Shown piece after piece: positions 308-49,435 of a DNA stretch of 64,000 bases. Source of the stretch: an uncultured archaeon (GTDB taxonomy: Archaea; Asgardarchaeota; Thorarchaeia; Thorarchaeales; Thorarchaeaceae). The stretch lies in contig CAZSWP010000012.1 in NCBI GenBank assembly GCA_964610875.1, positions 1 to 64,000 of the forward strand, written 5' to 3'. Positions within the stretch are counted from its first letter, which is position 1, and the number at the start of each line of letters is the position of its first letter. Below the pieces are notes generated by a model that saw only the letters and a list, made by a program, of their open reading frames with translations, was not told the origin of the DNA and did not search any database. Position numbers and translations under genes: made by a program.

Positions 308-348
308 AAGGAGGAGTTTCTGACTCCTCTTTCCCTCCTTATTTTTTT
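308..348 (+). terminator. Hairpin plus T-tract after secY
   Basis: GAGGAGT-ttctg-ACTCCTC stem (311-329) followed by T7 (342-348). Confidence 0.6.
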
Positions 349-401
349 GTAAAGTTATCCCTTTCACGATTTCCAGTAACTATATTTAATCGAAGTTATT
401 C

Positions 402-44513: not shown

Positions 44514-45854
44514 ATGACTCAGGATAAACTCCCCACTACTGCTGTCTTCTGGGATATAGAAAACGTGCAGGACGATCAAGTCACTCATGAGCGACTCACA
44601 AAAGCTGTAAAGGAGTCTGGGGACATAATACGTGCATACGCATTTGCTGACTGGGACACTCGCCGATTTGTGGCAGAGAATCTGCACCAGTTAGGATATG
44701 ATTTGATACATGTTCCAGATTATCGTGATAACGCTGCAGACTACAAGATGGCTGCGTATATTCTAGAGCATCTTGTTCGCTATCCTGAAACAAAGAAATA
44801 CGTAATGGTCACAGGAGATGGCGATTTCAAACTGATTGCTGGAGCTCTGAGAGAAAAGGGCTTGGACCTCTGGATAATCAGCAATCCCATCATTACATCC
44901 TCGGAACTGACAGATATTGCTACACAGTACTCGGATATCTACTCTTTTAGACCGATCACTCTAGAGTGCTCTACACCGGAAGACTGCAAAGCTCTCGGAA
45001 TGACGATGGAGGAGATTAGGGAGATTGCGGTGACAAAACTGCAAGAAGCGGTCTTGGAGATCAATGAGTCCGGAAATAGTCCCGGGATTGGACATGTTAA
45101 ACACGTCATGACCGCACTCAACCCTGGCTTCAATGAGAAAAGATTGGGTTTTAAGAACTGGTCTGATTTTCTTACATGGGCGGAGTCTAAGGATTACATT
45201 GCGTTAGAAGGCGAAATGCCTGGTACTATCATCAAGATACCTGAAGATATGACTTCGCAAGTACAGAAGCACTCAGAAGAATCCACGCGTGCATTCAAGA
45301 GTTTCTGTTCTCTTGTTGAACAACACGTAGATGAGGGACAAGCCCCTAGCCTAGAGATCCTTAGCACTTCATTAGAAAAGCCCGATATAGATTTTCAAGA
45401 ACTAGGTTATACCACTCTTGCAGACTTTATTCTTGCAGCGGAAAAAAGGGGATTTGTACGTATCATCTCAGATGGGTCAGAAGACTCTGTTGAAGCGCCA
45501 AAGATCATACCCGGAATGAATCCCGAGCGAGTGAAGGCATGGTTTGAAGAAAAAGTCACTGAACTCTATGGAGAGTCGGTAAATGTGCCGAAGAGAGGAT
45601 TTCTCGAACGCATCTCCGATATGCTTCTTGAAACTCGAATCACTCTTGGAAAATTGGAAAACTACTTGAGGGATGAGAATCTCCAAAAACAATACCGCGC
45701 TATTCTTGACGCAAGTGACCTACCGTTCTTGCCACCATACCAGATGTCCTTCTTGTATATCCTTCTTGGACAAGGTCTGAGTTGTGAGAAAGCAATAGAA
45801 CGTGTAAACAGAGAACTGGAACCTCTCGCAATAGTTCTGTCTTGTCCAGAATGA
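44514..45854 (+). CDS. NYN-domain ribonuclease with LOTUS/OST-HTH domains
   Basis: AVFWDIENV, NAAD, VTGDGDF; F.EKRLGFK..SDFL and F.ELGY..LADFI repeats. Confidence 0.9.
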   Translation: MTQDKLPTTAVFWDIENVQDDQVTHERLTKAVKESGDIIRAYAFADWDTRRFVAENLHQLGYDLIHVPDYRDNAADYKMAAYILEHLVRYPETKKYVMVTGDGDFKLIAGALREKGLDLWIISNPIITSSELTDIATQYSDIYSFRPITLECSTPEDCKALGMTMEEIREIAVTKLQEAVLEINESGNSPGIGHVKHVMTALNPGFNEKRLGFKNWSDFLTWAESKDYIALEGEMPGTIIKIPEDMTSQVQKHSEESTRAFKSFCSLVEQHVDEGQAPSLEILSTSLEKPDIDFQELGYTTLADFILAAEKRGFVRIISDGSEDSVEAPKIIPGMNPERVKAWFEEKVTELYGESVNVPKRGFLERISDMLLETRITLGKLENYLRDENLQKQYRAILDASDLPFLPPYQMSFLYILLGQGLSCEKAIERVNRELEPLAIVLSCPE

Positions 45855-46002
45855 AGTTTTATCTTGAATTCTACTATATCCCCAGTCAACTATCAAGAGA
45901 TATGTTCAGGTTGTTAACAGGCGCCATTGGAAGGTACAACTGTTAAACACACGTAGCCTTTTTCTTCTTCCATGTACTATACATGTATGAGGTTGGAAAT
46001 TA

Positions 46003-46155
46003 GTGTTGGATTCGGATTCAAGACCTAAAACACCATTACCCGATTGTTATGGCGGGTATAGTTCAAAAGAGATTTCTTGTCAAAATTGTGACTGGTCTGC
46101 TGACTGCAGAAAAACAACCGAGGATACACTAAGGAAACTGGGGGAAGACATCTAA
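46003..46155 (+). CDS. 50-aa Cys4 microprotein (below the ORF-track cutoff)
   Basis: GAGG RBS then GTG; MLDSDSRPKTPLPDCYGGYSSKEISCQNCDWSADCRKTTEDTLRKLGEDI*. Confidence 0.55.
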   Translation: MLDSDSRPKTPLPDCYGGYSSKEISCQNCDWSADCRKTTEDTLRKLGEDI

Positions 46156-46307
46156 TCCGCGTATAATCCTGACCTAAGATGTGAAAACATCAGCTGGTAG
46201 ATAATCAGCAATCATGAGCATTGGACTCGCAATACTAGAGAACTGACTATATTAGGTATCTAGCACATTATGTAGTATAAGCACCACTCTGGAGTGTGTC
46301 ATAACAG

Positions 46308-47741
46308 ATGGAAGATCTCTATGAAAAGTATGGTTCTGCAGTGGATAGACTAGCAGACACTTCTGCATCTGTTGATGTGTTCCAAAGGCAATTTGGTGCA
46401 GAGCTTACTTCTTGGGAGCTAGAACATCAGAAACGGTTTCAGCGGCGGATATCTTCAACCAAGAGCTCCTACCGTGGATATGTACATTACACAAGGGATA
46501 CATCCGTTGTCTTACTCAGTCCGAGTCCTTGGCTTCTTGAGGGAGTGCTCGTATACATACAGCGGGACCAAGAATTACCTCCTGAGAATATATTAGTGGA
46601 GATAACAGGTCGGAACATTCTTGCTCCTAGAATACTTCAAAACAGAGGTGACTCGGTGAGAGCTATTTCTGTGGATGAGATTCAGATTATTGGTGAAAAC
46701 ATAACCGACAACATTCATCCTAATACAAACCTTAGAGACCTCTCAAAGATGTTGTTTGAGCATGTTGGTATGGCTGAGGCGAGTAAACGAGTCTTTGCTA
46801 GGTTGTTTGTGTCCAGTCCGCCACATGAAGGTGCAATCGGTGGTCTGACAACGGGTATCCAAGCACTAGCATCGGAGAGAAAGGTGCAGCGCCTCTTCTC
46901 ATTGATCAAATCTGTCGTTCCTCCAGCACTTAGAGGTAAAGGAGCTACCTCTGTGAACTTCAGAGGTATTCGCGTTCCCAAACCGAAGATATGGCGCTTA
47001 GAGTCTGGAAAGACGGTGAGGTCCAAACTTGAGGAATTATGTATCAGGCGAAGAGACCCTTCTGGGTTCAGTGAGGTCTCTCTTGGTACAATGACCACGC
47101 AATCTACAGCAGCATTACCAGATGTTCCGATTGCTCTCACATCTGAGGAATTTTGGATAGAAACTCGGAATGCGTCAGAATTGCGATTACCCATCACTAA
47201 AGCAGCGATTACTTACAAACTGTTGAATCCAAGTGTGTCCCATCAATCAATTGATGCAGGAACGAAACACGCTCTAAAACGATTAGAAGTCATCAAAGAG
47301 AGTTTTGGACTTGAAAACTCTGCACTTAGTAGAGGTAATGTCCTAGATGCAGACGCGCTGGGTAGACCAATGAGTATGATACGACTAGCATTATCCTCAG
47401 CACGAGCATATTGGAAAGAAAAGATAACAGTGAAGCAATTGAAACGTGAATGGGACCGAGTATTGGAACCAGCCTTGCGTGAGTTTCTTGAGTTGTCTGA
47501 CATCAAGGAGAAAGCTGAGGCAAGATGGGGCAAAGATAGTCGCTATGACCGTTATGATAGTCGAATTCTAAAAGCATTAGAAAAACTGGACGCAGGAAAG
47601 ACTGGGTCTCTTGGACCAAAACTAGCTGAGATTGCAGAAGAAGCTGGAGTTGAGCAGCACGAGACTGCTCAGACTCTTACAAAAATGAAAGAAGATGGAA
47701 CTGTATATGAACCTCGCATCGGACATTACAGACTTGTATAA
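46308..47741 (+). CDS. Divergent MCM-like protein lacking recognisable Walker motifs
   Basis: C-terminal ...KMKEDGTVYEPRIGHYRLV resembles the archaeal MCM winged helix; SMIRLALSSARA...ITV resembles the MCM lid/sensor-2 helix. Confidence 0.6.
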   Translation: MEDLYEKYGSAVDRLADTSASVDVFQRQFGAELTSWELEHQKRFQRRISSTKSSYRGYVHYTRDTSVVLLSPSPWLLEGVLVYIQRDQELPPENILVEITGRNILAPRILQNRGDSVRAISVDEIQIIGENITDNIHPNTNLRDLSKMLFEHVGMAEASKRVFARLFVSSPPHEGAIGGLTTGIQALASERKVQRLFSLIKSVVPPALRGKGATSVNFRGIRVPKPKIWRLESGKTVRSKLEELCIRRRDPSGFSEVSLGTMTTQSTAALPDVPIALTSEEFWIETRNASELRLPITKAAITYKLLNPSVSHQSIDAGTKHALKRLEVIKESFGLENSALSRGNVLDADALGRPMSMIRLALSSARAYWKEKITVKQLKREWDRVLEPALREFLELSDIKEKAEARWGKDSRYDRYDSRILKALEKLDAGKTGSLGPKLAEIAEEAGVEQHETAQTLTKMKEDGTVYEPRIGHYRLV

Positions 47742-47748
47742 TGATTCA

Positions 47749-48345
47749 CTATTTGAAATAGTCAAAGAATTCTTCTGGCTCACTACCTTCCTCGATGAGT
47801 TCGATATCTTGAACTCCTACCCTCTCTGCATCGTAACGTCTTGCAATGATGGTTGCATCAAACTTCTCTCTGGCAGAAGCTTCTTCGCCACGCCAGACAA
47901 AGATATCATCCCAAGTATCCAACACAAAGACGTCATCGCTCTTTAGAGAATCGCGTGAGAGTGGTACTTCAGCAAAGAAGGTTTCATCACCTTCTCTATG
48001 TACGCGCCAGAGCTTGTACTCTTTGGTTTCCAAACGGACCTTTTTCAGAATTCCCTCTGTATCCTCATCAGTAAGCTCAAAGTCATCGAAAAGGCTCTTG
48101 AAGTGTTCTGGTTCCTGTCCGCCATCTATTCTATCAATGTCGGCATGTCCCTTACGTGCGGTATCTCGAAAGACCGCCTCTGCTGCTGTAAGGAACTTTT
48201 CATCTACTGAACTGTTCGGACCTATCCAGAGATAGATTTTAGGTCCTGCATCAACTAGATAACAGTCCCCTCGTCCAAACTTTCCAGGGTCCTTCATCAG
48301 AACAAGATTTCCCTTTTGCACGTGGTATACATCTGGTTCTCCCAT
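47749..48345 (-). CDS. Two-domain gelsolin-family protein (Asgard 2DGel type)
   Basis: GDCYLVD...IYLWIG..SS.DEK and L.SDDVFVLD....IFVW.G..AS..EK, EGSEPEEFF. Confidence 0.93.
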   Translation of the reverse strand: MGEPDVYHVQKGNLVLMKDPGKFGRGDCYLVDAGPKIYLWIGPNSSVDEKFLTAAEAVFRDTARKGHADIDRIDGGQEPEHFKSLFDDFELTDEDTEGILKKVRLETKEYKLWRVHREGDETFFAEVPLSRDSLKSDDVFVLDTWDDIFVWRGEEASAREKFDATIIARRYDAERVGVQDIELIEEGSEPEEFFDYFK

Positions 48346-48442: not shown

Positions 48443-49435
48443 ATGCCTGAACTACCTGAGATTGAAACAATTGCTCACAAACTCTCAGAATTACTCATTG
48501 GAGAGGTAATCAAGAGAGTGCGTGTTGAGAATCATCTACTCATCTGTGGTAGTACAGTGGAAGACTTTGAAAAGATGTTGCTTGGAAAGGAGTTTCAATC
48601 GTTTAGGGGCGATGGCAAGTTCTTGGTAATGAAATTAGACTCTGACATTGAGATTGTGATTAACCGTTCATTGCAAGCTGGACAGATCTGGACACCGGAG
48701 TCTTGTCCGTCCAGAAATGGTACTGGAACGTTACTCCGTGGGGTCAGCACACAGATGTCAGGTGACCTATGAATTTATTCCGTTCTGAAGTATCTAAGCT
48801 CCCACAAAAAATGTCTAGGATTGTCCAGGTTTTTGGCAGCTGTTAACAACCCCATGCTTACTGGACGCATCAAGTTGACTAGTCCTTCTAAGAAACCCGG
48901 AAAGCAGGATGTGTTCAGAATCTTGGTGAGCAATCAGACACTGTGGTATACAGATAGGAAACAGATTGGACGCGTCTATCTTGTGAGAGATTCTGATTAT
49001 TCCACTGTTGCGGAGTTTGAAGGTCGTGGCCCCTCTGCATTGAGTCCCGAACTCACACTTGCTGTATTCAAAGAGAGGATAAGACGACACAGAGGACAGG
49101 TCAAAAATGTCCTGCGCAATCAGAGATTCGTAACAGGTGTTGGCAACGCCTATGCAGATGAGATTCTACTCTATGCCGGAATCCTACCTTTTAGAAAACG
49201 CTCTACACTTACCGACGATGAAACAGAACGTTTGTATACTGCCATGAGAGCAGTCCTCTCGAAGTTCAAGGAGATACTTATGGGGCGGTCTCTGAAAGAG
49301 ATTGGTCTTGAAAAGCGTGACTTCTTAATGATTCATGGCAAGACAAATGGAGCCTGTCCATTATGTGGCAATAGAGTTTCTGAGGTCAAATCCAAGCGAT
49401 TCAAGACAAATTACTGTCAGAAATGCCAAGTATGA
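48443..49435 (+). pseudogene. mutM: Fpg/Nei DNA glycosylase interrupted by a 186-bp insertion
   Basis: MPELPE start, GKFL, IVIN|PMLTG split by the insert, H2TH GVGNAYADEIL, C-terminal CPLCG...CQKCQ. Confidence 0.9.
48661..48850. mobile_element. 186-bp non-autonomous insertion (MITE-like) with imperfect terminal inverted repeats; ends ambiguous by a few bases
   Basis: Left TTAAC-N13-CTGGACA-gat-CTGGACA versus right reverse complement TTAAC-N13-CTGGACA-atc-CTAGACA; removing 186 bp restores VINPMLTG. Confidence 0.7.

Follow-up and report, generated by a model that had tools for sequence, protein, structure and literature searches.

The window considered here, a stretch of 64,000 nucleotides from an uncultured archaeon of the Thorarchaeaceae, carries a gene whose product, P0001, we regard with near certainty as an MCM-derived paralog without a working ATPase (hereafter, the dead MCM; Table 1). 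Its open reading frame (ORF) starts with an ATG and forms one uninterrupted frame with zero internal stops. This start codon is consistent with the lengths of more than 100 orthologs (477 to 484 amino acids), and the G+C content across the gene is unremarkable relative to the window. A gap of 453 nucleotides separates the ORF from the upstream gene, which encodes an NYN/LOTUS-domain protein (44514-45854), and the downstream gene, which encodes a gelsolin protein, is convergent and 7 nucleotides away; the dead-MCM gene therefore looks monocistronic.

Table 1. Features of the dead-MCM gene and of its convergent neighbor in the window.
Feature	Residues	Position	Strand	Basis and remarks
Whole gene, dead MCM P0001	1-477	46308..47741	+	477 aa, stop codon included in the coordinates; ORF list and translation
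N-terminal extension	1-50	46308..46457	+	Family-specific; occupies the place of MCM subdomain A
OB fold	51-130	46458..46697	+	Equivalent to MCM subdomain C, without the subdomain B zinc finger; five strands (model)
Shrunken, degenerate AAA+ alpha/beta core	131-290	46698..47177	+	hhalign; structural match to Mcm7 AAA+
Walker A place	178-192	46839..46883	+	GGLTTGIQALASERK in P0001 vs RGRSNILMIGDPGTGK in MCM; hhalign mapping
AAA+ lid	291-405	47178..47522	+	phmmer and profile matches to MCM lids; hhalign confidence 5-9
Sensor-2 helix equivalent, LDADALGRPMSMIRLALSSAR	346-366		+	Within the lid; family-invariant P354 and R366
Flexible linker and C-terminal winged helix	406-477	47523..47738	+	MCM/RPA32 type; ends YEPRIGHYRLV
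Two-domain gelsolin protein, convergent neighbor		47749..48345	-	Pfam Gelsolin, E 1.6e-28; syntenic marker

P0001 keeps the domain order of an MCM: OB fold, AAA+ core, lid and C-terminal winged helix (WH). The initial annotation had proposed an MCM paralog with this order from the letters alone, and all the segments that it named could be located in a profile-profile alignment of the family with 14 intein-free Asgard MCMs. This hhalign alignment (probability 97.4%, E-value 3.3e-11, 425 columns) places residues 1-477 of P0001 against residues 145-692 of MCM; a local run followed an identical path, with posterior confidence peaking at residues 150-207, 221-235 and 356-477. Along this path, LVEITG of P0001 aligns with the MCM OB strand LVRLTG, the strand WRLESG with MCM MTLEAG, LFEHVGMAEASKRVFARLFVS with the MCM pre-Walker-A helix (IAPSIQGHEHIKESIALLLFGG), ITKAAITYKLLNPSVS with the first MCM lid helix, and SMIRLALSSARA...KITV with the MCM sensor-2 helix.

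Identity between P0001 and MCM is 10-15%. A single-sequence search matches residues 305-477 to the MCM of PDB entry 8x7t (E-value 1.5e-4), and the family profile retrieves archaeal and eukaryotic MCMs from PDB through the end of the lid and the WH (E-values 6.8e-10 and 1.6e-8), as well as the genome's own MCM (1.7e-6). For the WH itself, profile matches in PDB include those of SsoMCM (2m45, 1.2e-6) and RPA32 (3e-5). The initial annotation had noted both resemblances of the C-terminal domain, to the end of archaeal MCMs and to RPA32-type domains. In Pfam, P0001 matches only weakly and only at the C-terminal WH (DUF5817_CT, E-value 8e-4; MCM_C, 0.21). No match to PF00493, MCM_OB or MCM_N was found in P0001 at E <= 1, nor in any of 36 family members at E <= 0.1; among these 36, sub-threshold matches to MCM_WH_arc occur in 7 and to MCM_C in 6. 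A scan of NCBIfam gave nothing beyond NF040949, which is confined to the WH and, at 10.8 bits, stays far below its cut-off of 940.

Structural comparison extends the resemblance to nearly the whole protein. All top 50 Foldseek matches of the AlphaFold (AF2) model of P0001 (pLDDT 84.8, pTM 0.80) are MCMs, with a best E-value of 2e-12. Upon re-alignment, residues 42-477 of the model superpose on MCM chains with Z scores of 17 to 19.4; the similarity thus covers an AAA+/lid fold and is not limited to a generic winged helix-turn-helix, the outcome that the initial annotation had named as fatal to its proposal. The ATPase and lid module aligns with the AAA+ domain of Mcm7 (8q6p_7; Z 18.0, root-mean-square deviation (rmsd) 3.4 A, 223 residues) and with PfMCM-AAA (Z 16.7). 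In a Foldseek-independent search of 48,161 representatives, ranks 1 to 11 are all held by the MCM family (Z 13.5-16.7), including Methanopyrus kandleri MCM2 (Z 16.6) and MCM8/9 (Z 15.0-15.8), and the first non-MCM folds after them are RavA (Z 11.7), a MoxR-like protein (10.6) and BchI (9.5). A second model, built for the distant Methanomethylicia member P0138 (pLDDT 88.7), gave an identical fold ranking; here the OB fold finds 4me3, the N-terminal domain of an archaeal MCM (Z 9.3), and the WH finds both RPA32C (Z 11.8, rmsd 1.0 A) and the MCM WH (Z 10.2).

Searches of the ESM Atlas also agree with an MCM-like shape and lead to two archaeal clusters of the same shape. These clusters (511 amino acids with 464 members, and 414 amino acids with 81 members) belong to no Pfam family and are most commonly labeled Methanobacteriota. 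They are the nearest language-model neighbors of the dead MCM (0.96), with TM scores of 0.55 and 0.52 over 350 residues. It may be that dead MCM-like proteins make up a broader superfamily.

P0001 has lost the zinc finger and helical subdomain A and, as far as the alignments can tell, all nucleotide-handling motifs that can be mapped. The structural alignments begin at model residues 42-47, against MCM residues ~100-150, that is, past subdomain A. P0001 contains a single Cys, and none of 54 family members scanned by regular expression has the two CxxC motifs of the subdomain B zinc finger. In the same scan, the Walker A pattern [AG]xxxxGK[ST] occurs in 0 of 54 members, and hhhhDE is found at the aligned Walker B position in none. 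Together with the hhalign motif mapping, these scans uphold what the initial annotation had called an ATPase-dead, truncated protein lacking Walker A, Walker B and zinc finger. At the Walker A place, DSSP assigns a strand (181-186) and a helix (190-203), whose connecting loop is shortened to 3 residues; the segment aligned to Walker A reads QALASERK, and the column equivalent to the Lys (192) holds K or Q in Thorarchaeota.

The remainder of the AAA+ core is harder to read. Recognizable remnants are the pre-Walker-A helix, strand beta-1 and helix alpha-1, and the core is ~50 residues shorter than in canonical MCM about the helix-2-insert, the PS1 hairpin and the sensor-1 region. Within it, hhalign confidence is moderate to high at residues 150-207 and 221-235 and low for Walker B, sensor 1 and the PS1 hairpin, for which two strand assignments are possible. 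No conserved acidic pair, Lys or Arg is found at residues 210-290, nor a conserved acidic pair in the family at residues 225-250, and the PS1-hairpin Lys is lost. The position of the SRFD arginine finger aligns, with low confidence, to LPDVP, which contains a nearly invariant D272. The sensor-2 Arg (P-I-T-x-R) is aligned to invariant P354 by both phmmer and hhalign; most members have R or K one position earlier, and a one-residue shift is possible. The loss of every mappable nucleotide-handling motif implies that P0001 cannot be a motor, and predicts no ATPase activity.

The earlier statement that SRFD is absent held in part: no arginine finger stands at the right place, but SRYD does occur, at residues 409-412. 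We considered this tetrapeptide as a surviving arginine finger and rejected it. The site falls within the linker joining lid to WH, a part modeled with low confidence, and the family column there reads SRID, TRLD, APVH and others, with SRYD or SRFD in some Thorarchaeota members; because of this linker position and the lack of conservation, its occurrence is a coincidence.

The N-terminal extension has a conserved motif of its own. In the monomer model its residues 3-18 have a pLDDT below 50, and a helix is formed at residues 35-44. Residues D13, L15, D17, D23, R27, G30, E32, W36 and E37 are invariant in an alignment (A1) of 25 sequences, comprising P0001 and 24 homologs of 52-62% identity, in which mean column identity is 73% and ~100 columns are invariant. 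R27 is nearly invariant throughout the broad family.

More than 200 orthologs of ~477-484 amino acids and 53-62% identity were identified. Those with a name are 'hypothetical protein' from Thorarchaeota, apart from two JGI records bearing other, evidently misassigned names, and a Pfam domain is found in none. The initial annotation had suggested surveying Asgard and other archaea, and the survey shows the dead MCM to be universal in its own Thorarchaeota family: in a sample of 300 genomes of the phylum, a full-length copy is present in 76 of the 76 genomes of this family, contig-end fragments aside. Outside it, 6-7 genomes in five other Asgard families have such a copy (G031, G199, G048, G178, G226, G111 and perhaps G025), and the remaining matches in the sample correspond to the C-terminus of canonical MCM, often intein-bearing. 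An exhaustive phmmer search of 1.84 billion representatives returned 37 clusters, ~28 of them full-length (416-487 amino acids, 22-33% identity). The named distant members come from Odinarchaeota, Methanomethylicaceae (Methanomethylicia) and Bathyarchaeota, and share the fold. A profile made from the distant members alone recovered just 8 proteins and left the extent of the family unchanged.

Two observations were made in the course of this survey. For one same-family ortholog (G155:C15:114802-116198), the match is divided into two pieces that each contain a TGA, a break that may reflect a true disruption of the gene, a frameshift or a fault in the assembly. In addition, the canonical MCM genes of many Asgard genomes (for example, G127, G154, G029 and G035) lie in open frames of 1,070-2,300 amino acids with the Pfam MCM domain in pieces, as would be expected if the ATPase domain held at least one intein.

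The dead MCM is under strong purifying selection: in 50 pairs whose dS is unsaturated, and which are not independent of one another, the median dN/dS is 0.076. Between three genomes, dead MCMs are 47-50% identical and the canonical MCMs of the same genomes 72-76%, so that the divergence of the former is about twice that of the latter. The dead MCM is under weaker constraint than the motor, yet clearly maintained. A look-up of RNA sequencing runs turned up none containing it, an outcome that points in neither direction.

Of 29 related loci, 24 have the gelsolin gene beside the dead-MCM gene, with the Fpg gene next in many. Gelsolin, an Asgard eukaryotic-signature protein with 77-86% identity in relatives, is a syntenic marker rather than a demonstrated functional partner. 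The Fpg/Nei glycosylase gene is split in the window into two ORFs sharing a frame (48443-48772 and 48821-49435, forward strand), the first encoding the N-terminal domain and the second the H2TH domain and zinc finger; the insertion that splits it terminates in a TGA at 48770-48772. In related Thorarchaeota loci the two halves overlap or abut. On the other side, the forward-strand gene at 44514-45854 encodes a 446-amino-acid protein with an N-terminal NYN ribonuclease domain (E-value 2e-21) and OST-HTH/LOTUS repeats, and lies ~1.2 kb more distant from the dead-MCM gene in several relatives. No repeats or origin-like elements were found in the upstream region of the window's gene (45855-46307).

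Among the distant members, no gene neighborhood is shared across the four contexts examined. One of these deserves description. On the Methanomethylicaceae contig JAVZKW010000016.1 (L065), the dead-MCM homolog lies between cren7 and a cdc6/orc1-like gene. Six copies of an ORB-like 17-mer, A(A/C)ACGAAAT(A/G)AGGGTGT, occur in both orientations at L065:4950-5740 and L065:7191-7739; they occur nowhere but in the two intergenic stretches, both AT-rich, on either side of the homolog, for a chance expectation of 0.03. A DUF1156 methyltransferase gene and an HTH_17 gene lie nearby. The locus resembles an origin of replication which, given these last two genes, may belong to an integrated element. This single locus provides a lead for a function as a scaffold at origins, discussed below.

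The genome holds one canonical MCM of 694 amino acids (P0182), encoded on a different contig from the dead paralog. On that contig (G000 contig C3), the canonical MCM gene (64029-66140) lies ~4 kb from one of two Orc1/Cdc6 genes (~70295-70576), a possible origin neighborhood. The initial annotation had suggested that the dead MCM could join or regulate the helicase ring. When MCM residues 95-612 and the whole paralog were submitted to complex prediction, both partners as alignments and in one pairing and one stoichiometry, the ipSAE was 0.72 (0.72, 0.72 and 0.74 in three runs), compared with 0.00 for the best of three controls. The mark passed is one reached by 58 of 80 solved complexes and by 2 of 110 mismatched pairs. 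The runs agree in at least 93% of their contacts, and partner pLDDT is at least 79. This part of the earlier proposal is thus supported by a model, which in itself is no evidence of binding.

The predicted contacts single out one face of the MCM protomer. On the MCM side they involve residues 412-436, 467-472, 534-546 and 564-571, and in the N-tier 136-140, 181-190 and 218-223. Residues 412-436 comprise a helix with the invariant H418 and the PS1 hairpin, residues 467-472 immediately precede R473 of SRFD, and residues 564-571 surround the sensor-2 R565; the P-loop side of MCM is untouched. The arginine finger, sensor 2 and sensor 3, with a conserved His, form the trans side of the MCM ATP site (PMC4619765). 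On the paralog side, the predicted contacts (residues 1-53, 71-85 and 102-121) fall nearly all in the extension, which contributes most, and in the OB fold.

As the likeliest mechanism we consider a model, at a probability of roughly 0.4, in which the dead MCM would act as a nucleotide-independent pseudo-subunit of canonical MCM. Its N-terminal extension and OB fold would dock on the trans face of an MCM protomer (arginine finger, sensor 2 and sensor 3), where the paralog would replace the P-loop-bearing neighbor and its ATP, the extension filling the vacated nucleotide site. Such an interface would never be able to hydrolyze ATP. Rather than unwind DNA, the dead MCM may cap, gate or chaperone MCM assemblies, in ring opening or loading, storage or inhibition, and its MCM-like WH may engage the partners of the MCM WH. 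For the binding step taken by itself, we would put the chances of contact through the trans face, as the complex model has it, somewhat short of even.

Comparison with known systems helps to place the family. Canonical archaeal MCMs (P0182, PDB 8x7t, SsoMCM 4fdg/6mii, PfMCM-AAA 4r7z) share with the dead MCM the OB fold (subdomain C), AAA+ core, lid, linker and WH, with Z scores of 16-19, and in both the WH ends with a YEP-x-x-G-x-Y motif. The dead MCM differs in its size (477 versus 694 amino acids), in its lack of subdomain A, zinc finger, Walker A, Walker B and SRFD, in its conserved 50-residue N-terminal extension and in missing the Pfam MCM threshold. RPA32/Rpa2 resembles P0001 through its WH, to which the last 65 residues of P0001 are about as similar as to the WH of MCM; this likeness concerns one domain alone, and OB fold D of RPA32 cannot account for residues 131-405.

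A closer parallel is M. kandleri MCM2 (PDB 3f8t), an inactive archaeal homolog of MCM with naturally occurring internal deletions and no conserved Walker A (PMC2933578, PMC4619765). It is likewise an archaeal MCM paralog of similar size (459 residues modeled) in which Walker A is not conserved, it aligns structurally with Z scores of 16.4-16.6 (302 residues at Z 16.6), and it has the highest TM score by target in Foldseek. Unlike it, the dead-MCM family is widespread, carries an N-terminal motif of its own and has retained the C-terminal WH; furthermore, 3f8t is not among the best 60 of 111 profile matches at E <= 10. The two are probably independent inactivations. In eukaryotes, MCMDC2 and the mei-MCMs (Drosophila MEI-217/MEI-218) are MCM-derived, lack a working ATPase and act by binding (PMC5070785, PMC6553819). 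The dead MCM shares with these proteins and with MCM-BP the concept of a non-catalytic MCM relative acting via MCM or DNA binding, but no sequence-level membership was found: Pfam MCM_bind (PF09739) has no match in any of 36 members at E <= 0.1, and the MCM-BP cluster is a language-model neighbor at 0.82, below the lead level of 0.9. Of the comparison drawn in the initial annotation with MCMDC2 and MCM-BP there remains, at most, a functional analogy. A literature search for an inactive MCM in Thorarchaeota or other Asgard archaea, or for an archaeal MCM-BP homolog, returned no paper describing one in the collection covered. A 2025 survey of Asgard replisomes reports MCM as mostly single-copy, and the passages that a term search retrieved from its main text mention no such paralog (PMC12680538).

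Several points weigh against the pseudo-subunit model. The complex score is the model's own confidence, and MCM-MCM complexes are abundant among solved structures, so that likeness to these may be reflected in it; a single pairing and stoichiometry were predicted, and the ring-like geometry is what we infer from contact lists alone. The predicted interface residues are not extra conserved (permutation p 0.29 in Thorarchaeota and 0.74 in the broad family). Conservation is highest at residues 151-190, 271-280, 341-366 and 381-390, remnants of the ATP-site region for which the complex model offers no explanation. Dead subunits inside AAA+ rings often retain half of the ATPase site, and here both halves are lost. 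The gene is monocistronic, on a contig other than that of MCM and Cdc6, and has no conserved replication neighbor. Finally, M. kandleri MCM2, the sole solved inactive archaeal MCM homolog, crystallized as a monomer (PMC4619765). A rival reading is a stand-alone scaffold that has lost MCM contact and binds DNA or partners, its OB fold and WH holding DNA or recruiting replication or repair factors such as Orc1/Cdc6 or PolD/primase, after the manner of the WHs of MCM and RPA32, at origins or in repair. We consider this doubtful, though worth serious attention. The best-conserved link to known proteins is indeed the lid end and WH, about equally close to the WHs of MCM and RPA32, the latter being a protein-recruitment module (PDB titles 9f2a and 4mqv); the AAA-like part carries a net charge of +8 and the lid +4; predicted MCM-interface residues show no preferential conservation; and the gene environment offers Fpg nearby in Thorarchaeota genomes and, in Methanomethylicia, the six ORB-like 17-nucleotide repeats around a homolog adjoining cdc6 and cren7. 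However, this origin-like context is a single locus and the repeats are absent upstream of the Thorarchaeota gene, the MCM complex prediction was clearly passed, and a complete two-tier MCM body kept at a dN/dS of ~0.08 suggests that an MCM-shaped body matters.

Self-assembly is another alternative: copies of the protein might build an MCM-like homo-oligomeric ring that sits on DNA as a passive clamp, or slides along it, with no turnover of ATP. Both tiers that mediate ring contacts in MCM (OB and AAA+/lid) are retained, and the most conserved segments sit at the former inter-subunit ATP site; but AAA+ ring interfaces are normally stabilized by nucleotide, which cannot bind here, and P0001 lacks both the zinc finger and subdomain A, which help to make contacts in hexamers and double hexamers. 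The closest solved analog, M. kandleri MCM2, is monomeric (PMC4619765), and we find such a ring improbable. As for origin, an ancestor among other AAA+ proteins of the helix-2-insert clade that gained an OB fold and a WH would have to be sought in the next-best folds: RavA (Z 11.7-12.6), MoxR-like proteins (10.3-10.6), BchI of Mg-chelatase (9.5-10.6) and BrxL (8.9-9.8). With all 11 top representatives in the MCM family, a gap of 2-5 Z units, an OB-through-WH alignment seen only with MCMs, and lid and WH profiles matching MCMs only, such an origin is very hard to believe. Least credible of all is the idea that an MCM gene was duplicated and that one copy is now decaying, without present function. 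The loss of every catalytic motif, an evolutionary rate about twice that of MCM and the interruption by TGA or frame break of the gene in the G155 relative would fit decay, but 76 of 76 family genomes carry an uninterrupted gene of full length, contig-end fragments aside; median dN/dS is 0.076; Thorarchaeota-type homologs show 73% mean column identity and ~100 invariant columns; and length is conserved at 477-484 amino acids. The relic reading is effectively refuted already.

Archaeal MCM is usually taken as a self-sufficient homohexamer, and regulated, multi-partner handling of the helicase is counted as a eukaryotic innovation. Here, strong selection maintains a dead MCM paralog in an entire Asgard class, and relatives of it are found in further Asgard lineages and in TACK lineages. 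It is conceivable, though unlikely in our estimation, that this represents an archaeal pseudo-subunit older than eukaryotes: a nucleotide-independent cap or chaperone held on the MCM arginine-finger face by its N-terminal motif, controlling ring assembly, opening or loading at origins, and a forerunner or analog, in Asgard and TACK archaea, of MCM-BP/Cdt1-type handling. Surveys of Asgard replisomes based on hidden Markov models would miss the dead MCM, because its copies are labeled 'hypothetical protein' and have no Pfam domain. It would be a previously unlisted component of the archaeal replication or repair toolkit, and a tractable case of a motor subunit turned regulator. If docking on the arginine-finger face is true, the dead MCM would illustrate a simple, testable way of gating an AAA+ ring without nucleotide.

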